Assembly: GCA_964468895.1 (NCBI GenBank)
Contig: CAYXWT010000024.1
Coordinates: 1 to 11,469, forward strand
From: an uncultured archaeon
GTDB lineage: Archaea > Iainarchaeota > Iainarchaeia > Iainarchaeales > CSSED10-239
Direction of reading: 5' to 3'
Length of the DNA stretch: 11,469 bases
Position 1 is the first letter of the stretch. Each line of letters opens with the position of its first letter. This document shows, piece by piece, positions 1 to 11,469 of this stretch. Under the pieces are notes generated by a model, which did not search any database, was not told where the DNA came from, and saw only the letters and a program-made list of their open reading frames with translations. A program made the translations under genes and the position numbers.

Positions 1-2829
1 GCTTTAGATACTAAAAGATTAAGTATGTATAGATTACCAGAAACATATAGTGCTATGCATATTAAACACGGAGAAACACCTGCTATATATAAAGATGCAT
101 ATATTGATTTCTTTGCAAATGATGGGTCTGATCAAGGAGATGTATTTATGGCATTTTTAGATTCTTTTGCATTTTGGACACCACATTTAATAAAAGAAAG
201 TCTCAAATTAATACCTGGTCAATTAACAGATAGTATAAATGTAAAACTTGATGATATACTTAAAGGAAAAATTAAAAGAAATAAAGTAGATGATATTGTT
301 CTTTTTACAGATACTATTAATACTGGTTGTGGTACTTCTTGTACTATTACATTAGATAATTCTAATTATTTAGAAAAAGTAACTAGACAAAAAACTCTTG
401 CTAATCAAAAAGCAGAAGATGCACCTGGATACGTAGATCCTAGTACAAGTAAATCTCAAGAAAAATTAAAACAAGAAATTATAGATCAAAAATTACAAGA
501 TAAATATCAACAAATGGATTATGCAATGGATCAATTAGAAGGTGGACTTAAATCTTTTGATACCGATCAAGAAGAAATAGATTCTATTAAAGAAAATTAT
601 ACTGAACAATACATAAATCAAATTGAAAATTCAACTTCTGAAATTGAAGAAAATGTAAGTAATAATATAGATGGTATTACTGATGATATTAGTATTAGTT
701 TTTCAGTTCCACGTGGAATTATGATTCAAAACTATATACTAGAAAATACTTCTAAAAAGAATTTAGAAAAAAAAGGTCAAAATTTAATTTCTTTTACACA
801 TCATACTGATTATGATGGAACAACTGCAAATGAAACTAATAAAAATGCAATAAATCTAGTTACTGCTAGAAATGAAAAAAACACTTGTGAACAAAAAATT
901 CAAAATCTAGATTTTTTAGGTATACCTATTGGTTGGGCTACACCTAATAATTATAGAGCAGCAGGAGTTATGTTACTTCAAGAACATCTTAGTTATATTA
1001 CTATGCCTGCTTATAAAAACACATGGGTTATAGGTGCTTTAACTAGTAGTGTTCCTCAACAAGCTATTATTATGCCAGAAATCTATGGTTGTGTAGATGA
1101 TCAAGAAGGAAGATATAATCATTTCTTTGTATCTACTAGAGCTGATGATGAAATTACAAAAAATCCCAAAAATCAAGTTGGAGAAATGGTTGAAGATAGT
1201 TTAGATAATATAGGTGATTCATTAAGTAAAATAAGTAAAGGTACTGATTTTGAAAAAACAGTAAAAACAGGAACTAATGAAGCAAAAAAGTTTATAGAAA
1301 ATAATATTAAAGAATATCCTATTGTTCAATCAAGATTAGTTACAAATGGTGAAGCTAATGGAAGTTTAAATGGACAATTATTCTTTATTGAACTTGGACC
1401 TAATACAAATTGTAATGCTAATGCTCTAAGTGATACTGGTGTAGAATTCTTAAAAGATAAAACTCTTAATGAATCTTTAAAAATAGATAAAGAAAATGGA
1501 GAAATGTCTCTAATCAATGAAGATGGAACAGTTAATATTATAATTGATAAAGATAATTCTGATTTTGTAAGATTGATTGGAACTAATTTAGGTATACCAG
1601 CTAAAGTAATACCACATAGTTTAAGTTATATACCAGTTCCAGATACAAATTCTGAATTATTTGAAGTTGATGTTTATGGAAACTTTACAGTTTTAGATGG
1701 TGACTTTTTAGATTGTCTTAAAGCTGGTTATGAAGCTCAAACTGGTTTAGTAATGGAAAGTGGAGTTACTAATCTTAAAGATTATTTTGGAAATGTAAAA
1801 AATGTAAATATTCTAAATCCATTAACACAATATAATGTATATCCTCAAAATACAAAAATTGTTGCTGAAGGAACTCCTAGACTTGTTGCTAATAATAAAA
1901 GTGCTATATTAAAAATAAATGGTAAAAGAAAAAGTAATTTAACACATATAAATAACGAACAAAAATACTTAGGACAAAATATATCTGTTCAATTTGAAAA
2001 TGCACAATTAATATATAGTGGAGAAAAAGACTCATATATTATGTGGGTACAACATACAACTGTTACTAGCAGTAATGATATAAAATCACTAGATACTACT
2101 CTAGTAAAAGAAAAAGCAAATAATGGTTGTGATGAAGAAGAAATTGCTTTAGATTTTAAAGTTAAACCTAGTAATACAAATGATGATTCTCAAACTGTAG
2201 CAAATGTAGAAAAATTAAATAAAGCTTTTGAAAATATTGGCCCATTTAAAATGTTTGATACAGCTACTAAAACATTTATATTTTATATAAGTGAACCACC
2301 TGAATGTGAACAAAGATTAAAAATTATAGATAAAGAAACAGGTGAAATATTTGATCAAAAAATTACAGATATTCAAGAAACTGCAAATGGAATTAAAATA
2401 AAAACAGAAGATGGTTCAGAACATGAATTTGAGTTTAGTGCTGATAATGGTATACCTGAACTTAAATATAATGGTGAACGAGAAACATTACTTTCAGCAC
2501 AAGGAAATAATGGTTCATTTTGGTATGATCCACAAACTGGTAACTGGTACACAGAAAACGGACATCTAATACCTTTTGACAGTGAATTTAAAGACGGAAT
2601 GATGTTTAGTGCTAATGAAAATGGAGAAGTTACAGGTAAATCTGCACAAAATGTATTTAATATAGGTGATAGTGGTTCAGGTGGTAGTAATAGTGGATTT
2701 AATATTCCTCTAACACCTAGTTCTTTTGTTAATCTAATACTTTATATTAGTATAATATTATTTGCATTTATGCTAATAAATTATAAAATTAAAAAAATAA
2801 AACCAAAAAATATTAAAAAGAAAAGATAA
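1..2829 (+). CDS. Large extracellular/surface protein, 5'-partial, with a C-terminal Gly/Ser linker, TM helix and polybasic tail
   Basis: The frame is open from base 1: GCT TTA GAT ACT AAA AGA TTA AGT precede the first in-window ATG at 25, with no stop and no SD-like motif. The gene therefore probably starts upstream of the window. It runs 934+ codons to TAA at 2827-2829. No family recognised. It has an acidic coiled-coil-like stretch (KSQEKLKQEIIDQKLQDKYQQMDYAMDQLE...), about a dozen N-x-S/T sequons and 8 Cys. The tail is GDSGSGGSNSG, then a 20-residue hydrophobic helix FVNLILYISIILFAFMLINY (2725-2784), then KIKKIKPKNIKKKR. Confidence 0.8.
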   Translation, partial: ALDTKRLSMYRLPETYSAMHIKHGETPAIYKDAYIDFFANDGSDQGDVFMAFLDSFAFWTPHLIKESLKLIPGQLTDSINVKLDDILKGKIKRNKVDDIVLFTDTINTGCGTSCTITLDNSNYLEKVTRQKTLANQKAEDAPGYVDPSTSKSQEKLKQEIIDQKLQDKYQQMDYAMDQLEGGLKSFDTDQEEIDSIKENYTEQYINQIENSTSEIEENVSNNIDGITDDISISFSVPRGIMIQNYILENTSKKNLEKKGQNLISFTHHTDYDGTTANETNKNAINLVTARNEKNTCEQKIQNLDFLGIPIGWATPNNYRAAGVMLLQEHLSYITMPAYKNTWVIGALTSSVPQQAIIMPEIYGCVDDQEGRYNHFFVSTRADDEITKNPKNQVGEMVEDSLDNIGDSLSKISKGTDFEKTVKTGTNEAKKFIENNIKEYPIVQSRLVTNGEANGSLNGQLFFIELGPNTNCNANALSDTGVEFLKDKTLNESLKIDKENGEMSLINEDGTVNIIIDKDNSDFVRLIGTNLGIPAKVIPHSLSYIPVPDTNSELFEVDVYGNFTVLDGDFLDCLKAGYEAQTGLVMESGVTNLKDYFGNVKNVNILNPLTQYNVYPQNTKIVAEGTPRLVANNKSAILKINGKRKSNLTHINNEQKYLGQNISVQFENAQLIYSGEKDSYIMWVQHTTVTSSNDIKSLDTTLVKEKANNGCDEEEIALDFKVKPSNTNDDSQTVANVEKLNKAFENIGPFKMFDTATKTFIFYISEPPECEQRLKIIDKETGEIFDQKITDIQETANGIKIKTEDGSEHEFEFSADNGIPELKYNGERETLLSAQGNNGSFWYDPQTGNWYTENGHLIPFDSEFKDGMMFSANENGEVTGKSAQNVFNIGDSGSGGSNSGFNIPLTPSSFVNLILYISIILFAFMLINYKIKKIKPKNIKKKR

Positions 2830-2902
2830 CTCTTTTCTTCCTTATTTTTATTAATATTTATAATAACTTTTATATATAATTATATAAATAATAACCTAAA
2901 AA

Positions 2903-2907
2903 GTGAT
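2903..2907 (+). promoter_or_regulatory. Shine-Dalgarno-like GTGAT upstream of lysS
   Basis: GTGAT matches the GGAGGTGAT anti-16S-3'-end consensus and lies 5 nt before the ATG at 2913. It is the only G-containing block in an otherwise A/T spacer. Confidence 0.4.
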
Positions 2908-2912
2908 AATTT

Positions 2913-4463
2913 ATGAATTGGGCAGAAAATCATGCAAGAAAAATTATAGCAAAATTCCCTAATCAAGAAGAATATGTATGCGCTTCAGGAATAACTCCAA
3001 GTGGATTTATACATGTTGGAAATTTTAGAGAATATTTTACTGTTGAAGCTGTTAGTAATGAGCTTAAAAAATTAGGTAAAAAAGTAAGACATTTTCATTC
3101 ATGGGATAATTTTGATCCTTTAAGAAAAGTTCCTAAAAATATACCTGAAGAAAGAAAAGATGAATTTAGAAATTATATTGGTATGTGCATAACTGATGTT
3201 CCTGATCCATTTAATAAAGAAAAATCATATGCAGATCATTTTATGAAAAAATTTGAAAATGAATTAAAATTAATAGGATGTTCAGCTGAATTCTTAAATC
3301 AAGAACAAATATATAGATCTTGTGATTATAAAGACAAAATTAAAATTGCTTTAAATAAAAAAGAAGAGATAAAAGAAATTTATAATAAATTTAGAAAAGA
3401 ACCTGTTGGCGAAAATTGGTGGCCAGTAACACTTTGGTGTGAAAAATGTAATAAAGTAACAGATATTATATTAAACTATGATGGTAATTATACTTTAGAA
3501 TATAAATGTAAACATTGTGAACATCAAGGAAAAATAGATTTTTCCAATAATGGAAATGTTAAACTTAGATGGAGAGTAGATTGGCCTATGAGATGGTCAT
3601 ATTATAATGAACACTTTGAACCAAGTGGTAAAGATCATATGTCTTCAGGTGGTTCCAATGATATGGCTCAAATATTAGTCAAAGATATATTTGATGGTCA
3701 TCAAACTTATGCTTTTATGTATGAATTTATTGGTATAAAAGGAGGAGGTGGAAAAATGTCTTCTTCAAGCGGTAATATTTATACTATTTGTGATATATTA
3801 AAATATTATCTTCCAGAAATATTTAGATATTTATATGCTTCAACTAAACCAAGTAGTCCATTTGATATTCAATTAGATGAAAATATATTCCAAGTATATA
3901 CTAAATTTTATAATTTAGAAAAAGAATATTATGACAATGATGTCACTACCACTGTTGAGAACACCAATAATAATAGTAAAGATACTAAGACATATGAAAT
4001 TAGTAATGTTTGGCTACCTAAAACACAACCGCATCAGCCTAGACTACAAGAATTTATAACACTATATCAAGTTTTAGATAAAGATACTATTGGCTTCTAT
4101 ATCAAGGTTAATAATATAACTTCAGAATTTGATATAAAAAGAATAAATCAAATTTATAATTGTGCAAAAAATTGGTTAAATGATTTTGCACCAGAAAAAT
4201 ATAAACTTAAAGATGTAAATGAATATAGCAAAGATATTCAAAATACAATTATAGAATTTATGGAAAACAATAAAGAGTTTAGTGAAGATTATCAAAATAA
4301 ATTTTATAATTTTATGAAAGAAAAAGATATTAATATTAAAGAAGCTTTTAAGAATTTTTATATATTAATATTTAATAAAGATAAAGGACCTAAACTAGGA
4401 AATATTATTCAATTCTATGGAGTTAATAAAATACTAGAAATAATTAAAAATAAAAAAAATTAA
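2913..4463 (+). CDS. lysS: Lysine--tRNA ligase, class I (archaeal-type LysRS)
   Basis: 516 aa. HIGH-type motif present as HVGN (3012-3023) within SGITPSGFIHVGNFRE. KMSKS-type motif present as KMSSS (3753-3767) within GGGKMSSSSGN. WRVDWPMRW and GKDH blocks are present, plus a CxxC...CxxC knuckle (CEKC...CKHC). Length and motif order match what I recall of class I LysRS from methanogens and Pyrococcus. Confidence 0.93.
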   Translation: MNWAENHARKIIAKFPNQEEYVCASGITPSGFIHVGNFREYFTVEAVSNELKKLGKKVRHFHSWDNFDPLRKVPKNIPEERKDEFRNYIGMCITDVPDPFNKEKSYADHFMKKFENELKLIGCSAEFLNQEQIYRSCDYKDKIKIALNKKEEIKEIYNKFRKEPVGENWWPVTLWCEKCNKVTDIILNYDGNYTLEYKCKHCEHQGKIDFSNNGNVKLRWRVDWPMRWSYYNEHFEPSGKDHMSSGGSNDMAQILVKDIFDGHQTYAFMYEFIGIKGGGGKMSSSSGNIYTICDILKYYLPEIFRYLYASTKPSSPFDIQLDENIFQVYTKFYNLEKEYYDNDVTTTVENTNNNSKDTKTYEISNVWLPKTQPHQPRLQEFITLYQVLDKDTIGFYIKVNNITSEFDIKRINQIYNCAKNWLNDFAPEKYKLKDVNEYSKDIQNTIIEFMENNKEFSEDYQNKFYNFMKEKDINIKEAFKNFYILIFNKDKGPKLGNIIQFYGVNKILEIIKNKKN

Positions 4464-4475
4464 ATAATTAAAAAA

Positions 4476-4649
4476 ATGGTGAATAAAAATATGGTTTCAA
4501 AATGTATAAAATGCGGAAAAATATTAAAAAACTTTGGTATGTATTGTGAAAAATGCGAAAAAGAAATAAATTATAAAATAGATAGAAGAGACAATTTTCA
4601 AGAAAGATATAATAAAGCAGATTTCTTTCAAAGACAAAGAATGAAATAA
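4476..4649 (+). CDS. Small C4 zinc-ribbon protein (57 aa, or 52 aa if it starts at ATG 4491); not in the supplied ORF track
   Basis: My own translation: MVNKNMVSKCIKCGKILKNFGMYCEKCEKEINYKIDRRDNFQERYNKADFFQRQRMK, ending at TAA 4647-4649. It has CxxC-x10-CxxC followed by a basic tail. GGTGA at 4478-4482 sits 8 nt before the second ATG (4491), which favours that start. The ORF begins 12 nt after the lysS stop on the same strand. Confidence 0.5.
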   Translation: MVNKNMVSKCIKCGKILKNFGMYCEKCEKEINYKIDRRDNFQERYNKADFFQRQRMK

Positions 4650-4667
4650 GTAATTTAAAATTATTTT

Positions 4668-4700
4668 AAAAAATGATTATTATCAATATAATTATTTTTT
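4668..4700. terminator. Candidate bidirectional terminator hairpin between convergent genes
   Basis: AAAAAATGATTAT (4668-4680) pairs with ATAATTATTTTTT (4688-4700) over 13 positions; one pair is G:U on the plus-strand RNA. The loop is 7 nt (TATCAAT). The arms supply a T6 run on each strand. It lies exactly between the zinc-ribbon ORF stop (4649) and the thioredoxin gene stop (4704). The stem is all A/T and therefore weak. Confidence 0.3.
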
Positions 4701-4703
4701 AAA

Positions 4704-5393
4704 TTAATTTAACAACTCATCCAATTTAGAACTAATATCTTCTAAACCTTTTTCTGAGCCACATGATTTCAAAACAACTTCTCCTTCTTTATCTAAAATT
4801 ACAAATGAAGGAATATATCCACATTCTGAATTTGTAATTTCATTAAAATCAAGATTTTTATTTAAACCTTGTGCAATTTCATCAACTTCAAAAGTTGCAT
4901 CATTTATAACTTGTGCCCAAAGGTTTGTACTATCTTTATAATTATCCCAAATCTTAGTTTTATACTCAGGAATCATCCTACTACAATGTCCACAATAAGT
5001 ACCTACAAAAAGAATAACTGAAGGTCTTCCTTTAAAATCTTCAAAACTAGAAAATTGATCTATCTGATAATTAGCAGTTAGTTCATTATCTTTTGACTCA
5101 ATATTTGCATCTTCTAATCTAGGAAGAGTATCATTTTCTCTTGAGTTTATATTTAAATTAGAATCATCTAAATTATCAACTCCTTTATATTCTGGATTAT
5201 CAGTAGTTGTTTGAACATCATCAACCTTGACAGAAGATTTAGGAGTTGTAGATATTAATGACATTATAAATATTATAATAATAACAAAAGCTAAAGCAGT
5301 TATATAATAATGCTTATGATTTAATTTTTTAGATTTTGTTTTTTCAGACTTTACTTTAATTTCTTTTTTAATTTCTTTTTTTCTTTTAGACAT
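4704..5393 (-). CDS. Membrane-anchored thioredoxin-fold thiol:disulfide oxidoreductase (TlpA/ResA-like architecture, CGHC active site)
   Basis: 229 aa. Basic N-terminus followed by one TM helix (YYITALAFVIIIIFIMSLIS), then a polar linker. The Trx-like core is RPSVILFVGTYCGHCSRMIPEY, with CGHC at 4983-4994 (TGT GGA CAT TGT on the minus strand). A downstream cis-Pro-type loop GYIPSFVILDKEGEVV is present. SD-like GAGATGA lies 7 nt upstream of the ATG. Confidence 0.8.
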   Translation of the reverse strand: MSKRKKEIKKEIKVKSEKTKSKKLNHKHYYITALAFVIIIIFIMSLISTTPKSSVKVDDVQTTTDNPEYKGVDNLDDSNLNINSRENDTLPRLEDANIESKDNELTANYQIDQFSSFEDFKGRPSVILFVGTYCGHCSRMIPEYKTKIWDNYKDSTNLWAQVINDATFEVDEIAQGLNKNLDFNEITNSECGYIPSFVILDKEGEVVLKSCGSEKGLEDISSKLDELLN

Positions 5394-5550
5394 ATTTTTA
5401 TCATCTCATAGTATAAAATATAAATTCAATAAAACATATAATTAGAAAAACCATTATAAATATATTTATTATATTATAAATTTAAAAAGAAGTTAATTTG
5501 ATTTTATTAACAAATAATAAATTATTATGTAGATTAAAATACAAATTAAA

Positions 5551-5577
5551 TTATCTAAAAAATTAATTCTTAGATAA
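5551..5577 (-). terminator. Weak hairpin spanning the stop codon of the repeat gene, followed by a T-rich tract
   Basis: TTATCTAA (5551-5558) and TTAGATAA (5570-5577) are exact reverse complements (8 bp) with an 11-nt loop. On the minus strand the stop codon is followed directly by TTTTTT, which lies in the hairpin loop, and the hairpin is followed by TTTAATTTGT. The stem is AT-only, so it could be a chance occurrence. Confidence 0.2.
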
Positions 5578-7773
5578 TTTTTTAATTCTATTTAATCTAA
5601 AACCAGCAGTTTTTAATTGTTCAGTACCAAAACCAGCTTGTTTTAATTGTTCTAAATTATATCCAACTTTATATAATTGAGTAGCACTAAAATTTAACTT
5701 TCTAAGTTCTTTAGCACTAAAATGTAATATTCTAAGTTGTCTAGCATCAAAACCAAGTTCATAAATTTCTTTAGCACTATAGCCAGCATAATGAAGTTCT
5801 CTAGCACTAAATCTAGCATCATATAATTCATTAGCACTATACCCTGCTTCTCTAAGAGAAGTTGCATCATAATCTGCTTTTTTAAGCTCTCTAGCACTAT
5901 ATACTTTAACTAAATCTCTAGCTTCAAATTTTGCACGTCTCATATCTTTAGCATTATAACCAGCTTTATAATATTCTTCAATAGGAATATCTAAATCTAT
6001 TAATTCTTTAGCTTTATAATCTGCAAATCTTAAAGCTTCTAAACTAAAACCAACTTTGTATAATTCAATAGCAGAGTAACCAACTGAATGAAATTGCTTT
6101 GCACTATAACCTATACTTAATAATTCTTTAGCACTAAAACCATTCATTCTTAGATCATATAAAGTAAAACCAGCTAAATGTAAATCTAAAGCACTAAAAC
6201 CTGCTAATCTTAAAGCTTCTAAATCAAAACCAAAACTTAAAAATTCTTGAAGAGAACAACCAAGTTTATGTACTTCATTAGCTAAAAAACCAATATCTAA
6301 TAATTTTTTATAATCAATACCACTATCAAATAAATCTTTAGCACTATAACCTACTGCTTTAAGATCTACAATAGTATAACCTAAATCTAATAAATCATTT
6401 ACATTATATTTTAAAAATCTTAATTCTTCAAGTGTAAATGTTTTTTTATCTACACAATGTTCAAATATTTTTCCTATAGCTATTAATTCTTCAAGACTAT
6501 AACCAGCTTCTTTTAATTGAAGAATTGTAATACCTTGATTATAAAGTAGTTTTGCTGGAACCTTCTTTTTTTTAAAATCAATAATATTATAATCTAAATC
6601 TAAAAATTCTTTTACAGTAAAACCAGCTTCTAAAAGATCATTAATTTTAAAACCAATACTTATTAGTTCTTTTAAAGAAATATCTTCTTCTTTTAGATTT
6701 TTAGGAATACAATCTTGAGATATTAATTGTTCTAAACTAAAACCAGCTTCATATAATTCTTTAATACTATAACCAGCTTCTTTTAATTCTCTAGCACTAA
6801 ATCCACATTTTTTAAAATCTTTTAAAGTAAATATATCTTTAAGTTCATTAATATTATAACCTAAATCACATAATTTTTTTAAAGTAAATTTGTGTTTAAT
6901 TAAATCTTTTGGTTTATAACCTAATTCAAATATTTCTTTAATAGAATAATTTGCTTTAATTAAATCATTAAGACTATAACCTGCTTCTTTTAATTCTTTA
7001 GCACTATAAGCATTTTCTTTTAATTTTTTTGCATTTACATTTAATTTTTTTAATTCTTTAGCACTATATTCTGCATATATAATAGAATCTACATCAAAAC
7101 CAACTTTATATAATTCAACAGCATTATAACCTACTTCTTTTAATTCTTTAGCAGAACAATTAGTAGTTTTTAATTCTTTTAAAGTATATTTTTCTTTATT
7201 TAAGTCATTAACAACAAAACCTAAATCATATAAATCTTTTACATTTAAATCTAATTTTTTTAAATCTTTAAGATTTAATCTTAATTGTTTTAATTTTTTA
7301 GAATTTATTTTATTTTCAAGTAATTCTTTTACTTTATAACCAGCAATAATAATTTCTTTAATAGAATATTTATTGGAATATAGATCTTTAAGAGTATATT
7401 TTTCATCTTTTAATTCTTTAGCTAAAAATCCAATTTTTTTTAAATTTAATATAGAAATATTTTCTTTTTTAAAATCTTTTAGATTATAACCAATATCTTT
7501 AATTTCTTTTAATTTAAATCCAGAATCTAATAAATCTTTTATTTTAAATCCGGCTCTTTTAAGTTCATTATAATTAAATTTTAGTTTTTTATAAATAATT
7601 GATTTTGCTTTTATTTTTTTTAAATTTTTTAAAAAACCAATAATACTTATTTTATTATATTTTAAATCTTCAATAGTAACTTGAGGTATTACAAATTTAT
7701 TACTTATATTTAATTGTTTATCTATTAATTCTAAAACTTCTTTTTTATTTAAATTTAATTTTTTATTTTTCAT
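5563..7773 (-). CDS. 736-aa tandem decapeptide-repeat protein (about 65 units; consensus a-G-[YF]-[ST]-a-k-[ED]-L-k-e); family unknown
   Basis: Uninterrupted 2.2-kb ORF with ATG at 7771-7773 and TAA at 5563-5565. SD-like GGATGTGAT (plus-strand 7780-7788) lies 6 nt upstream. There is a strict 10-residue periodicity over nearly the whole length, for example AGYSAKELKE AGYSLNDLIK ANYSIKEIFE LGYKPKDLIK. No signal peptide or TM helix. Confidence 0.85.
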   Translation of the reverse strand: MKNKKLNLNKKEVLELIDKQLNISNKFVIPQVTIEDLKYNKISIIGFLKNLKKIKAKSIIYKKLKFNYNELKRAGFKIKDLLDSGFKLKEIKDIGYNLKDFKKENISILNLKKIGFLAKELKDEKYTLKDLYSNKYSIKEIIIAGYKVKELLENKINSKKLKQLRLNLKDLKKLDLNVKDLYDLGFVVNDLNKEKYTLKELKTTNCSAKELKEVGYNAVELYKVGFDVDSIIYAEYSAKELKKLNVNAKKLKENAYSAKELKEAGYSLNDLIKANYSIKEIFELGYKPKDLIKHKFTLKKLCDLGYNINELKDIFTLKDFKKCGFSARELKEAGYSIKELYEAGFSLEQLISQDCIPKNLKEEDISLKELISIGFKINDLLEAGFTVKEFLDLDYNIIDFKKKKVPAKLLYNQGITILQLKEAGYSLEELIAIGKIFEHCVDKKTFTLEELRFLKYNVNDLLDLGYTIVDLKAVGYSAKDLFDSGIDYKKLLDIGFLANEVHKLGCSLQEFLSFGFDLEALRLAGFSALDLHLAGFTLYDLRMNGFSAKELLSIGYSAKQFHSVGYSAIELYKVGFSLEALRFADYKAKELIDLDIPIEEYYKAGYNAKDMRRAKFEARDLVKVYSARELKKADYDATSLREAGYSANELYDARFSARELHYAGYSAKEIYELGFDARQLRILHFSAKELRKLNFSATQLYKVGYNLEQLKQAGFGTEQLKTAGFRLNRIKKLSKN
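5578..7650 (-). repeat. 30-nt-period intragenic tandem repeat array encoding the decapeptide units
   Basis: Exact copies of TTCTTTAGCACTA (reverse complement TAGTGCTAAAGAA, codons for S-A-K-E) occur at 5707, 5767, 6124, 6994 and 7054, all spaced at multiples of 30 nt. Many one- or two-mismatch copies also occur (for example 5797, 5827, 6335, 6787). The array is contiguous, has no spacers, and lies entirely inside the ORF. Confidence 0.85.
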
Positions 7774-7779
7774 ATAATA

Positions 7780-7788
7780 ATCACATCC
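7780..7788 (-). promoter_or_regulatory. Shine-Dalgarno-like GGATGTGAT upstream of the repeat-protein gene
   Basis: Plus-strand ATCACATCC reverse-complements to GGATGTGAT, an 8/9 match to GGAGGTGAT. It lies 6 nt before the ATG at 7773. Confidence 0.45.
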
Positions 7789-7899
7789 AATACATAATTA
7801 AAAGCTAAATTAATTATATTTAGTAAACAAGTAATATTTCACCTAAGATATAATATATATAAGAATGGAAATATTTATATATTATTATAAAATGCAAAT

Positions 7900-7917
7900 T
7901 AGGTTATGTAGAACCTA
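7900..7917 (-). terminator. Short hairpin just downstream of the tspO stop
   Basis: TAGGTT (7900-7905) and AACCTA (7912-7917) form a 6-bp stem with a 6-nt loop. On the minus strand it starts 13 nt after the tspO stop and is followed by ATTTGCATTTTAT. It is the only GC-containing structure in this spacer. Confidence 0.2.
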
Positions 7918-7930
7918 CAATTTTGTTTAA

Positions 7931-8440
7931 TTAATTTAATATTAAAATTAAAAGATTTAATATGGTTGCAAAAGCAACCCATAAAACATAAGGAAATAAT
8001 AAATATGCCGATGTTTTATTAATCTTATAAAACATAATAGTACAAAAAACAATTAATATTTCCAAAATTATAATTTCTATTAATCCTACAAGTAATAATT
8101 TAAATTCAAAAAATATTAAACTCCAAAGTATATTAAAAATTAATTGTATATAAAATAAGTTAATAGCTTTGTTTCTTAATTTTCTATTTTCCAAAGAGTT
8201 AGTTTTCGTACTTAATAATAAATATAAAGAAATAATCATTAGAATAAATATTATATTCCATGCTATTGGAAAAACATAACTTGGTGGAACTATTGACGGT
8301 AAGTTAATTGTTTTATACCAAGTAGATGTATTTCTACTTGTAAAAATAGAACCTAATAAAGCAGTTACAACAATACTTACAAAAGATACTACAAAATATT
8401 TTAATTTTAAAAATTTATTTTTAATTTTTATCGAAGACAT
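7931..8440 (-). CDS. tspO: TspO/MBR family (tryptophan-rich sensory protein / translocator protein homologue)
   Basis: 169 aa with five hydrophobic helices. Family-typical blocks are present: WYKTINLPSIVPPSYVFPIAWNIIFILM, QLIFNILWSLIFFEFK, and C-terminal AYLLFPYVLWVAFATILN. Size and motif order match the TspO family as I recall it. Confidence 0.85.
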   Translation of the reverse strand: MSSIKIKNKFLKLKYFVVSFVSIVVTALLGSIFTSRNTSTWYKTINLPSIVPPSYVFPIAWNIIFILMIISLYLLLSTKTNSLENRKLRNKAINLFYIQLIFNILWSLIFFEFKLLLVGLIEIIILEILIVFCTIMFYKINKTSAYLLFPYVLWVAFATILNLLILILN

Positions 8441-8484: not shown

Positions 8485-9351
8485 TTATTTAGGTTTTTTA
8501 TTTTTAAAAGACCAATATTTCTTTTTTTCAGATCTTTTAAAACCAAATTTATTAGCTATACTTTTATGCATACCTTTAACTCTTTTTTCAATTTCGGCAC
8601 AGTCTTTTTTGTATTCTTGAGCATAGACTTTTTCTAAAGGTAATTCTAGTAACATAGCTCTATCTTTTAATTCATGATTATATCTATATTTATGATTCCA
8701 AAGATGTTCAAAATTTAAATGTTTTAAAGATTTAAAATAATTTGGATTTAAAAAGAATATAGTTTTTTTATTTTTAAAATTATTTATAAATAAAGAATAA
8801 ATAAAATTTGAAAAATATTTGATTTTATGGTTTTTACAAAACTTTTTAACTTCTATAGGATTAGCTGTTTGATAATTACCTAAAATAACAGATGTTTTAA
8901 GATTTCTATTTACAAAAAGATCAAAATTCAACCTAGATAAAAAAGGTTCTTTAAAAATAGATTTAAGTATTATATCCTCAGAATAAACATCAATAGCTAG
9001 AGATAAAGGTGCATCTTGATAAGTTGCAATTTTAAAAGTTAATTTATGTTTTTTAAAATCTTTTTTTAAATCACTTAAAACAGGAGCTATCATTTTAAAA
9101 GAAATATATATTAATTCATTTTTATTTAAATTAATATTATTCTCAAAAACAAATCTCTTAGATAACAATTTAAACAAAGATGTGTTTTCTATTTTTTTAA
9201 TTAAATTAAAAGTATTTACTTGATTTAAATAGGGGTTATGTAGTATAGAGGTATATAAATTGAGCTTTTTTATTTTCCTACCTTTAATTAAAGAAATATC
9301 TCTTTCATTTAAACCAAGTAATGCTAAATTTTCAAAATTTACTTTTTGCAT
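8485..9351 (-). CDS. Hypothetical protein, 288 aa, soluble, basic C-terminal tail; no family recognised
   Basis: ATG at 9349-9351 and TAA at 8485-8487. It starts 19 nt downstream of the preceding gene, and tspO begins 44 nt downstream of its stop. Length and operon position support a real gene. No catalytic motif identified. The C-terminus is KFGFKRSEKKKYWSFKNKKPK. Confidence 0.65.
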   Translation of the reverse strand: MQKVNFENLALLGLNERDISLIKGRKIKKLNLYTSILHNPYLNQVNTFNLIKKIENTSLFKLLSKRFVFENNINLNKNELIYISFKMIAPVLSDLKKDFKKHKLTFKIATYQDAPLSLAIDVYSEDIILKSIFKEPFLSRLNFDLFVNRNLKTSVILGNYQTANPIEVKKFCKNHKIKYFSNFIYSLFINNFKNKKTIFFLNPNYFKSLKHLNFEHLWNHKYRYNHELKDRAMLLELPLEKVYAQEYKKDCAEIEKRVKGMHKSIANKFGFKRSEKKKYWSFKNKKPK

Positions 9352-9370: not shown

Positions 9371-9610
9371 CTATTTTAAAGTTTCTTTATAATTATTGCT
9401 TACAACTATTGCAAAAAGAACTAATAATCCAACAATGAATATAGATATCCAAGCTAAATTAGGAACTGCTAAACAAATTATTAGAACTGTAACAAAAGTA
9501 AATATACACACAGTTTCTACAATACTTACAAAAACATTTTTTTCAGATTTTGTCTTTAAATTTGTTTTAGCTTTACCATCTACAGATATTGTTACTTTTT
9601 TACGAACCAT
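9371..9610 (-). CDS. Small membrane protein, 79 aa, two predicted TM helices
   Basis: Basic N-terminus (MVRKKVTISVDGKAKTNLKTKSEK), then VFVSIVETVCIFTFVTVLIICLAV and AWISIFIVGLLVLFAIVVS. The ATG lies 4 nt after the helicase TGA stop, with AAGGAAG inside the helicase 3' end acting as an SD-like motif. This arrangement suggests translational coupling. Confidence 0.55.
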   Translation of the reverse strand: MVRKKVTISVDGKAKTNLKTKSEKNVFVSIVETVCIFTFVTVLIICLAVPNLAWISIFIVGLLVLFAIVVSNNYKETLK

Positions 9611-9614
9611 AATA

Positions 9615-10979
9615 TCATCTTCCTTTTTTATTAAAGTATTTCTTTTTTTGAGTAGCTTTTTTATGCTTCTTAGATGTCTGTAGTTGATTATATTTATATT
9701 TCTTTTCTTTTTGCTCTAAATATTCAGGACTGTTTTTATCAACAACTTTAAATTTTTCTTTAACTCTATTAACTTCATCTTTTCTTCTTTTTTGTGTTCT
9801 AAGTTTATTAGAATAAGATTTTGAGTTTTGGAAATTGTCAATTTTGTCACGTATATTAATAGTTTTAAGATCTAAAATTTTAAAATCTGGCTTTTTAATA
9901 CCTTTAACGTCAAAATTTTTAGTGATTTTCAAAAAAGAACCTTCTTCTCTATTAAGAATTAAATTTACTACTCTACCAGATTTACCATTTCTAGCAGTTC
10001 TTCCAATTCTATGAACATATTGATCTTTTTCTCTAGGTAAATCATAATTATAGATTTCAGTTATATTTTCAATATGTAAACCTCTTGCAGAAACATCTGT
10101 AGATATTAAAACACCTTTTGTACATTCTTTAAATGCGTTAATAGTTTTAGTTCTTACATTTTGAGAGATACCACCATGTAATTTAAAAGAATTAAAATGA
10201 TTTAAATCAAGATTATGATGCACAATATCTACTAAATCTTTAGTATTACAAAAAACTATAGATTTACTGTTTCTTTGTTTATCTAATAAATAAAATAATA
10301 ATGAAAACTTTTCTTTACCTTTCATTTTATAGTATTCTTGTTTAAGTTTACTTGAATCTACAAAATATTCTACAACTATTCTTTTAGCGTTAGTTAAATA
10401 TTTTTTTTCTAATTTTGTAATATCTCTAGATATTGTAGCTGAAAACAAAAGAACTTGTTTTTCTTTTGGACTTTTTACAATAACTGTTTGAATATCTTTA
10501 TAAAAACCCATATCACACATTCTATCAGCTTCATCTAAAATAAGAATTTTTAAATTTTTTAAATCTAAATTTCTTCTATTCAAATGATCTAATAATCTAC
10601 CAGGAGTTGCAATTACTATATCTGCTTTTCTAAGTTGTTTTTTTTGTTCATAAATAGAAGTACCACCAAAAACAACACATGAATTTATAGGAACATACTT
10701 AGTAAATTTAGCACATTCTTCATATACTTGGTTTGCAAGTTCTCTAGTAGGAACAACTATTAAAGCTTGAACCACTTGAATAGGATCAATTTTAGGTATA
10801 ATACCTGCTAAAAAAGCAAAAGTTTTTCCACTACCTGTAGCAGATTGACCAATAACATCATTTCCACTTATTATTAATGGTATTGTTTGTTTTTGTATTT
10901 CTGTTGGCTTTTCGAAGCCCATTTGTTTAACTATTTTTAGTGTATTTTTATCTACACCTAATTTTTCAAATTCTTTCAT
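9615..10979 (-). CDS. DEAD-box ATP-dependent RNA helicase with a roughly 90-aa basic C-terminal extension
   Basis: 454 aa carrying the full motif set in order: Q motif GFEKPTEIQ, I AxTGSGKT (SATGSGKTFAF), Ia PTRELA, Ib TPGRL, II DEAD (10524-10535, GAT GAA GCT GAT on the minus strand), III SAT, V TDVSARGLH, VI HRIGRTARNG. The Lys/Arg-rich tail is ...KLRTQKRRKDEVNRVKEKF...KKHKKATQKKKYFNKKGR. Confidence 0.93.
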   Translation of the reverse strand: MKEFEKLGVDKNTLKIVKQMGFEKPTEIQKQTIPLIISGNDVIGQSATGSGKTFAFLAGIIPKIDPIQVVQALIVVPTRELANQVYEECAKFTKYVPINSCVVFGGTSIYEQKKQLRKADIVIATPGRLLDHLNRRNLDLKNLKILILDEADRMCDMGFYKDIQTVIVKSPKEKQVLLFSATISRDITKLEKKYLTNAKRIVVEYFVDSSKLKQEYYKMKGKEKFSLLFYLLDKQRNSKSIVFCNTKDLVDIVHHNLDLNHFNSFKLHGGISQNVRTKTINAFKECTKGVLISTDVSARGLHIENITEIYNYDLPREKDQYVHRIGRTARNGKSGRVVNLILNREEGSFLKITKNFDVKGIKKPDFKILDLKTINIRDKIDNFQNSKSYSNKLRTQKRRKDEVNRVKEKFKVVDKNSPEYLEQKEKKYKYNQLQTSKKHKKATQKKKYFNKKGR

Positions 10980-11328
10980 ATTTTAACACTTTTTTTTTAT
11001 TTATACATATACCTTCAAGAAAATTAGATAATTCTTGTTTAGGTTTATCTGATTGTATTATCTTTTCCACAATATTTTTAATAAATCCTTTAAATTTTTT
11101 AGGATCTTTTTTTAAAATAATGGAATAATTTTCTATAAAAAAATTTACAGCTCTATAAAGATTAGATGTAATCTCTGGAGAATTAGAAAAATTCATTTTA
11201 ATTAAACTAACTTCATGTTCCAACAATCTTAATTTTGGTTCTACTATTTTTATTTTTCTTTTGATTTTAGATTTAAAGTAGATTTTTTTAATTTTACCAA
11301 AATTTTTTAATATCTTTTTAATAACCAT
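10966..11328 (-). CDS. Hypothetical protein, about 120 aa; 3' end overlaps the helicase start by 14 nt
   Basis: The track ORF (10966-11340) begins at a TTG. The first ATG is at 11326-11328, and I prefer it as the start. The stop TGA at 10966-10968 overlaps helicase codons 1-5 (ATGAAAGAATTTGA). The protein is Lys-rich and predicted helical, with no motif recognised. Support comes only from ORF length, strand and operon context. Confidence 0.45.
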   Translation of the reverse strand: MVIKKILKNFGKIKKIYFKSKIKRKIKIVEPKLRLLEHEVSLIKMNFSNSPEITSNLYRAVNFFIENYSIILKKDPKKFKGFIKNIVEKIIQSDKPKQELSNFLEGICINKKKVLKYERI

Positions 11329-11469
11329 AATAAACAACAATCAAATTTGTTTTCAATTATATAAAAAAGCTATATATTTAAAAAAAGACATAAAATAAAA
11401 ACTTTAAATTATTTGAAATTAATATACTATCAAATATACTAATATTAGGATAGTTTTTCTTTTTAAATA

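Follow-up and report, generated by a model that had tools for sequence, protein, structure and literature searches.

Tandem units of ten residues are known from the middle of DotG/IcmE of Legionella pneumophila, a type IVB secretion protein of the Gram-negative bacterial envelope that is part of a 27-protein machine and possesses an N-terminal transmembrane segment as well as a TrbI/VirB10 domain at its C-terminus. In the literature, the annotation traditionally given to the DotG repeats is 'pentapeptide repeats'. A motif of ten residues, [KR]-x-A-G-[FY]-[STND]-x-x-x-[LI], has been published for them and explicitly distinguished from the pentapeptide motif (bioRxiv 10.1101/2023.03.22.533729; PMC13244404), and the FEBS Letters 2026 paper and the preprint remark that the pentapeptide beta-helix is not seen in the AlphaFold model of DotG (PMC13244404; bioRxiv 10.1101/2023.03.22.533729). 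In electron cryo-microscopy (cryo-EM) of DotG only residues 2-42, 791-824 and 862-1046 were modelled and the repeat region is unresolved (10.1101/2025.06.23.660953); that it makes up the 'collar' of the Dot/Icm machine is a proposal. The number of DotG repeats is variable, and exposure to the host has been suggested for the protein. Here, a gene for a protein made almost entirely of the same kind of unit is described from an uncultured archaeon. The window, i.e. the complete stretch of 11,469 nt that was analyzed (contig CAYXWT010000024.1 of assembly GCA_964468895.1), carries this decapeptide gene on its minus strand at 5563..7773, where the list of open reading frames (ORFs) contains a complete coding sequence of 736 aa plus stop codon. 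The encoded protein has a predicted mass of 84.8 kDa and an isoelectric point of 9.2, and exactly the same protein is encoded on an independent Logan contig of SRR8862237.

An earlier note on this DNA had claimed a decapeptide array of near-constant register with two units of 9 residues and a break near IGKIFEHCVDKK, as well as the absence of a signal peptide, a transmembrane helix or any other domain, and on all of these points it was right. In an autocorrelation analysis, residue identity within the protein was 0.266 at lag 10, 0.246 at lag 20 and 0.224 at lag 30, compared to 0.085±0.010 in 500 shuffled sequences, so that the lag-10 value lies about 18 standard deviations above the shuffled mean. 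The unit boundaries were set by dynamic-programming segmentation of the protein. One register is kept across residues 64-313, 323-432, 444-613 and 623-732, and about 67 units were counted from residue 64, with two additional weak units from residue 44. The irregular units are two of 9 residues (314-322, IFTLKDFKK; 614-622, AKFEARDLV) and one of 11 residues (433-443, IGKIFEHCVDK). The consensus of the unit is [A/L/V/I]-G-[Y/F]-[S/N/T]-[A/L/I]-K-[E/D]-L-x-x, and each unit contains a capping box of the form S/T-x-x-E/D. Neither a transmembrane helix nor a signal peptide was found in the protein; the highest Kyte-Doolittle hydropathy over 19 residues is 1.16 and no peak is located near the N-terminus. 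The parts of the gene are as follows, with residue numbers of the protein:

7585..7773, minus strand: N-terminal module, residues 1-63, without a family match, its C-terminal part grading into degenerate units
6835..7584, minus strand: repeat block 1, residues 64-313, 25 units of exactly 10 residues, the most degenerate block (segmentation, PF25296, AlphaFold2)
6808..6834, minus strand: 9-residue unit IFTLKDFKK, residues 314-322, a register slip (segmentation) that is kept in the L004 and L005 orthologues described below
6478..6807, minus strand: repeat block 2, residues 323-432, 11 units (segmentation, PF25296)
6445..6477, minus strand: 11-residue unit IGKIFEHCVDK, residues 433-443, a predicted break or hinge (segmentation, AlphaFold2 loop, orthologues)
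5935..6444, minus strand: repeat block 3, residues 444-613, 17 units, holding the most conserved stretch (residues 521-600, nt 5974-6213)
5908..5934, minus strand: 9-residue unit AKFEARDLV, residues 614-622, a register slip (segmentation) whose length is kept in L004 and L005
5578..5907, minus strand: repeat block 4, residues 623-732, 11 units, nearest to the DotG consensus, with the best PDB alignment to DotG residues 637-741 and a pLDDT of 95-97 in the full-length AlphaFold2 model

The earlier note had called the repeat unclassified, and this claim has to be withdrawn. The Pfam family PF25296 'Decapeptide repeat region' matched the 736-aa protein with 524.5 bits (E=2.3e-161) in 12 stretches, the gathering threshold being 45 bits. 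Five separate repeat segments passed this threshold singly with 88-142 bits each, including the two halves of block 1 (88 and 106 bits), residues 314-432 (107 bits) and block 4 (129 bits). No other Pfam domain was found in the protein. The only significant sequence match in the PDB was Legionella DotG/IcmE (7MUC, 9NGV, 9NGW; E=1.2e-67), whose AGFSAKELKDAGF-type units are aligned with the C-terminal third of the protein, and local alignments between the two proteins reach 68-70 bits over about 100 residues. Both share the ten-residue unit A-G-[F/Y]-[S/T]-A-x-[E/D]-L-K-x and have arrays of tens of such units, the number of which varies between relatives. The published DotG motif in its strict form is matched 5 times in the 736-aa protein versus 25 times in L. 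pneumophila DotG, and the relaxed motif G-[FY]-[STND]-x3-[LIFMV] 24 versus 34 times; the units have diverged from the DotG consensus but stand in the same register. The repeat class is therefore already described, as Pfam PF25296 and as the unit of DotG/IcmE.

The distribution of the family was assessed in two large collections. A search of 5.8 billion proteins returned DotG proteins of Legionellales with the TrbI domain PF03743 and, in addition, many stand-alone or fused PF25296 proteins. Outside of the Legionellales the matches were metagenomic proteins and eukaryotic transcripts or genomes (Symbiodinium 'dotG', Chrysochromulina), and arrays of the type (A)GF(S/T)xxELKxAG, which the earlier note had mentioned for some bacteria and protists, are thus real. 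Elsewhere in the family the arrays are fused to TIR, EF-hand, kinase or TrbI domains. A HMMER scan of 1.84 billion representatives gave 1,932 clusters (50% identity) at E≤0.001 and 241 at E≤1e-30, some with more than 4,000 aa. Among the named matches listed for the search of 5.8 billion proteins none was archaeal, and literature searches on the decapeptide repeat and IcmE and on PF25296 yielded nothing useful. Many members of PF25296 are little more than an array, as is the protein of the window; unlike other members, the archaeal orthologue group has a conserved module of its own, about 60-70 residues long, at the N-terminus. The 736-aa protein is a stand-alone member of the decapeptide-repeat family in a DPANN-type archaeon, and the archaeal host is the new part.

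Several observations on other family members were made alongside. Some decapeptide proteins (P0009, P0039, P0051, P0057) are labelled 'ribosomal protein L13E' by the JGI, which looks like a recurring mis-annotation; spurious L13e matches also arise from the repeat with NCBIfam PRK12277 (E=2e-7 at residues 324-339 of the window protein) and with Pfam Ribosomal_L13e in L005. Seven AT-rich stand-alone decapeptide proteins (P0060, P0069, P0085, P0088, P0089, P0091, P0096) have the N-terminus YYxKYLKYKNKYLxxKEQxGG in common. P0069 at locus L006 and P0078 at locus L007, the latter locus carrying two decapeptide genes, adjoin genes of the eIF2-gamma/eIF5 fusion, RNB, Suv3-like helicase and Fapy glycosylase types, a gene context which looks like that of giant viruses (Nucleocytoviricota). 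The GC-rich, eukaryotic-looking contig L011 encodes at 2613-8297 a protein of 1,894 aa with a multi-transmembrane N-terminal region followed by a long decapeptide array; membrane-anchored versions therefore exist outside of the Legionellales. The neighborhood of the stand-alone homologue P0048 (kinase, PP2C, NYN, DEAD/MZB helicase) gave no transferable functional hint.

The decapeptide gene has conserved orthologues that are under purifying selection. Two JGI contigs, L004 and L005, encode lysyl-tRNA synthetases (LysRS) that are 78% and 68% identical to the LysRS of the window. The gene order of L005 is that of the window (LysRS, small ORF, thioredoxin-like gene, decapeptide gene, TspO), and in L004 the genes are arranged alike as far as the decapeptide gene, which is followed there by an unannotated ORF of 191 aa. 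The orthologues have 735 aa and 77% identity in L004 and 815 aa and 55% identity in L005. Unit for unit, both are colinear with the protein of the window, with both 9-residue units and the irregular break at the same positions, the break being one residue shorter in L005; the 80 extra residues of L005 correspond to 8 units inserted after about residue 103. Additionally, a scan of metagenomes with the orthologue alignment detected a more distant orthologue of 751 aa with 37% identity over residues 1-732 (L008, L009, L012). The contigs that carry it are 135 kb and 85 kb long, and its locus is also present in the NCBI metagenome-assembled genome (MAG) GCA_035451465.1, 'Candidatus Diapherotrites archaeon'.

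Between the window and L004, the nonsynonymous divergence (dN) of the decapeptide gene is 0.139, compared to 0.119 for LysRS and 0.293 for the thioredoxin-like neighbor, and the ratio of nonsynonymous to synonymous divergence (dN/dS) of the decapeptide gene is 0.41. Functional importance, as had been argued for the gene, is supported by this closeness to LysRS and by the conserved synteny. Within the unit, Leu at position 8 is conserved to 91-92%, and positions 4 and 10 are the most variable. The most conserved stretches are residues 521-600, with 90-95% and 70-78% identity to the orthologues, and residues 641-680. At the DNA level the repeats have a period of 30 nt with copies that are just 60-80% identical, and no sign of homogenisation by recombination among the copies was found. 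The array evolves by descent and not by repeat homogenisation; the protein consists of roughly 60-75 individually conserved units and a private N-terminal module.

This N-terminal module of 60-70 residues (KKEVxELxxKQLNxxxKFIIPxIxIxxL...) is conserved across the orthologues, and for residues 1-63 neither a Pfam family nor a solved structure was matched. The distant orthologue has two tandem copies of the module, which is about 70 residues long there (L008, 7992-8540). A profile of the module found only three short, otherwise unannotated proteins. One of these, P0352, is a fragment of the archaeal orthologue on L012 (6173-8464; GCA_035451465.1, DAOTOS010000001.1), whose sequence is interrupted by a run of N within the duplicated module; the spurious 'hypothetical protein' of 63 aa results from this run, and P0352 was rejected as a stand-alone protein of the N-terminal module. 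A likeness of the module to the THO1 SAP domain (weak PDB match, E≈0.45) was unsupported by Pfam and was dropped.

The fold of the array was predicted in two AlphaFold2 runs with different alignments, one made of in-register windows of 17 units from the window protein and its homologues, the other a MAFFT alignment of 37 whole homologues. With the first, residues 444-613 were modelled with a predicted local distance difference test score (pLDDT) of 93.8 and a predicted template-modelling score (pTM) of 0.78, and the DSSP assignment reads '----HHHHHH' 17 times in succession. With the second, the full-length protein was modelled with a pLDDT of 84.6, 68 short helices and zero strands. In this model residues 470-720 reach a pLDDT of 95-97; low confidence was assigned to residues 1-30, about 160-200, 353-366 and 436-447, with values of 37-60 in the N-terminal module and about 65 in the long loop 436-447. 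In both models a turn of 4 residues, x-G-[F/Y]-[S/T/N], precedes a helix of 6 residues formed by positions 5-10, and because of this arrangement S/T/N at position 4 becomes the N-cap and E/D at position 7 the N3 residue. The array is predicted to be an all-alpha solenoid. The earlier note had expected either a long rod or superhelix of about 65 short helices or a new beta-solenoid; it is the helical form that AlphaFold2 predicts, and the beta-solenoid is not predicted. The helix N-capping box that the note had read from the units fits the models, in which position 4 stands immediately before each helix.

A Foldseek search at E≤0.001 returned no solved analogue in the PDB for either model and no match to the fragment model among the predicted viral structures of BFVD. 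The nearest non-significant structure was the de novo design 8VD6 (PMC12339374; E=0.08, template-modelling (TM) score 0.23), which is not a natural relative. Like the model, 8VD6 and the (HhH)2 arrays of Methanopyrus topoisomerase V pile up very short helices with tight, Gly-containing turns between them; they are not matches (E 0.08-0.8, TM scores 0.1-0.23), and their units have 20-33 residues and 2-4 helices versus one helix per ten residues. The earlier note had also stated that a described repeat family of known structure would take away the novelty of the array. The family is indeed known. Its structure is not, as the repeat region of DotG is unresolved in the published cryo-EM work and Foldseek found no solved analogue.

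Taken together, the 736-aa protein is probably a stand-alone alpha-solenoid of the decapeptide family which is located in the cytoplasm of a DPANN-type archaeon and acts as an elongated scaffold or spacer. Each unit would begin with a turn over four residues, x-G-[F/Y]-[S/T/N], and continue as a helix of six residues, [A/L/I]-K-[E/D]-L-x-x, which is capped by position 4. A continuous core would be built from position 3 with its aromatic residue, positions 1 and 5 with small or aliphatic residues and position 8 with its near-invariant Leu, and the charged positions 6, 7, 9 and 10 would face the solvent. About 67 short helices could stack in this way into one long rod, broken at the three conserved irregular units, which are probably hinges. 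Due to the lack of a signal peptide and of a transmembrane helix the protein is predicted to be cytoplasmic. There it may hold or space partner proteins, for which the conserved patch of residues 521-600 and 641-680 and the N-terminal module are candidate binding sites. That other members of the family have fusion partners as different as TrbI, TIR, EF-hand and kinase domains is in keeping with a generic module for spacing or interaction.

Several points weigh against this account. The solenoid fold is a prediction; the first AlphaFold2 run was built from repeat windows, which can inflate the confidence of a model, and the pTM of the full-length model is low (0.42), so that it does not fix the overall shape. 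The missing hydrophobic segment is the sole ground for placing the protein in the cytoplasm, and the same repeats work outside of the cytoplasm in DotG. The dN/dS values of 0.41-0.60 are not very low, dS being compressed by the extreme AT bias of these genomes with 21-24% GC. Finally, the neighboring genes, i.e. LysRS, the thioredoxin-like gene, TspO and a DEAD-box helicase, give no hint as to the function.

In a more far-reaching version, which is offered tentatively and is rather doubtful, the alpha-solenoid with one helix per ten residues would be a fold type without an example in the PDB, and the DPANN group would represent a lineage-specific cytoplasmic ruler or cytoskeleton-like protein, related by inter-domain transfer to the proteins of Legionellales, protists and giant viruses. 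As far as the family is concerned, the supposed new repeat class is removed, the repeat being the DotG/IcmE repeat of PF25296, and PF25296 is extended to DPANN archaea by a conserved, syntenic gene. This extension raises a modest evolutionary question, namely by what path the repeat came to occur in Legionellales, protists, probable giant viruses and DPANN archaea alike. As far as structure is concerned, two AlphaFold2 runs agree on an alpha-solenoid of unusually short period without a PDB analogue. The near-pure array, the lack of membrane or secretion domains and the individually conserved units make the protein a good target for structure determination. If it is indeed a soluble alpha-solenoid, it would offer a practical route to the structure of the DotG repeat region, the proposed 'collar' of Dot/Icm.

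Among the rival explanations only one has an appreciable, albeit small, probability. On this view the protein would serve in host interaction or at the surface of an episymbiotic DPANN cell, which it would leave by an unrecognised export route, with the number of repeats tuning its reach as proposed for CagY and DotG. The 8 additional units in the L005 orthologue would suit such a role, as would the variable repeat number and the suggested host exposure of DotG, and DPANN genomes are rich in large surface proteins, e.g. the transmembrane-anchored protein of about 1760 aa adjoining LysRS. The window protein has no signal peptide, transmembrane helix or anchor, however, and a fast-evolving surface array should behave in the opposite manner to what is seen here, where the units are conserved singly, dN is near that of LysRS and the repeats lack homogenisation at the DNA level. 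This role is unlikely.

A less probable alternative is a pentapeptide-repeat protein, in which two pentads would make up one unit and the array would form a right-handed quadrilateral beta-helix like Qnr, MfpA and HetL, possibly acting as a DNA mimic. The proteins of this class (PF00805, PF13599) resemble the window protein in their short tandem units with alternating small, aromatic and Leu positions, and the DotG repeats long went by the same name in the literature. The earlier note had found the pentapeptide rule to fit poorly, and the profile scores agree with it: Pentapeptide_4 (PF13599) reached 26.4 bits versus a cutoff of 38, PF00805 was not reported, and the matches to QnrS, HetL and QnrA were weak (E=0.003-0.02). 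A periodicity of pentads was sought in the protein and none was found, the identity at lag 5 (0.049) lying under the shuffled mean of 0.085 and far from the value at lag 10. The period is 10 and not 5, the two models are all-alpha without strands at pLDDT 85-94, a helix-capping box stands in each unit, and the FEBS Letters 2026 paper and the preprint set the DotG motif apart from the pentapeptide motif and fold. On account of the sub-threshold profiles and the missing lag-5 signal, the assignment to the pentapeptide-repeat proteins was rejected.

Still less credible is a true DotG/IcmE-like component of an archaeal type IV secretion system (T4SS) or conjugation-like envelope machine. The best database and PDB matches are DotG proteins, and the NCBIfam model T4SS_IcmE_DotG (NF033900) scored 405.9 bits. 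This score is well under the cutoff of 750, and the best stretch lies within the repeat region of the model (positions 548-682 of 1008). PF03743 (TrbI/VirB10) is not matched in the 736-aa protein even at E≤10, whereas almost all matches to DotG carry this domain, and in contrast to DotG the window protein also lacks the N-terminal transmembrane segment. No T4SS genes were found in the window or beside the orthologues, where the neighbors are LysRS, the thioredoxin-like gene, TspO and the DEAD-box helicase, and the host is archaeal. The window protein was thus rejected as a DotG, with neither TrbI/VirB10 nor a transmembrane helix nor a nearby T4SS gene.

That the array is no real protein at all but AT-rich tandem DNA or an assembly artefact staying open in one frame, as the low GC content (15-25% across the gene, 15-28% in the window) and the 30-nt period might suggest, has a negligible probability and is already refuted by the orthologue comparison, since the 2.2-kb frame is open in at least 4 independent assemblies, substitutions keep the amino-acid pattern (dN/dS <1), indels comprise whole units (80 aa = 8 units) and the irregular units are conserved. 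The divergence of the DNA copies and the recurrence of the array with the same irregular units in independent assemblies of relatives speak against an artefact of assembly; the array is real and was neither collapsed nor expanded.

The LysRS of the window is of the archaeal class I type (TIGR00467, 435 bits versus a cutoff of 148), and its closest named relatives, at about 40% identity, belong to Nanoarchaeia, Woesearchaeota and Aenigmarchaeota. Judged by the type of LysRS and its relatives, and by the occurrence of the distant orthologue in the 'Candidatus Diapherotrites archaeon' MAG, the host is an archaeon of the DPANN type that has been sampled only sparsely. In the genome collection a LysRS with 67% identity was found in a MAG of an 'uncultured archaeon' (L002). 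No decapeptide gene is located beside LysRS in L002, so that the synteny is not universal in the wider clade.

Neither a tRNA nor an Rfam family was found in the window. Three of its minus-strand ORFs have no significant family: 8485-9351 (288 aa, basic), 9371-9610 (79 aa, two hydrophobic segments) and 10966-11340 (124 aa, with a sub-threshold match to Csm2 of 18 bits versus 24.8). On the plus strand, positions 1-2829 are occupied by an ORF of 934 aa which is listed from position 25 and is open to the first base of the window. The complete protein, of which this ORF is the C-terminal half, has about 1,760 aa, a C-terminal transmembrane anchor, a basic tail and no Pfam or NCBIfam match. The 934-aa ORF shares 78% identity with residues 834-1762 of its counterpart in L004, and an equivalent gene is located upstream of LysRS in both L004 and L005. 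This protein next to LysRS is probably a large DPANN surface protein.

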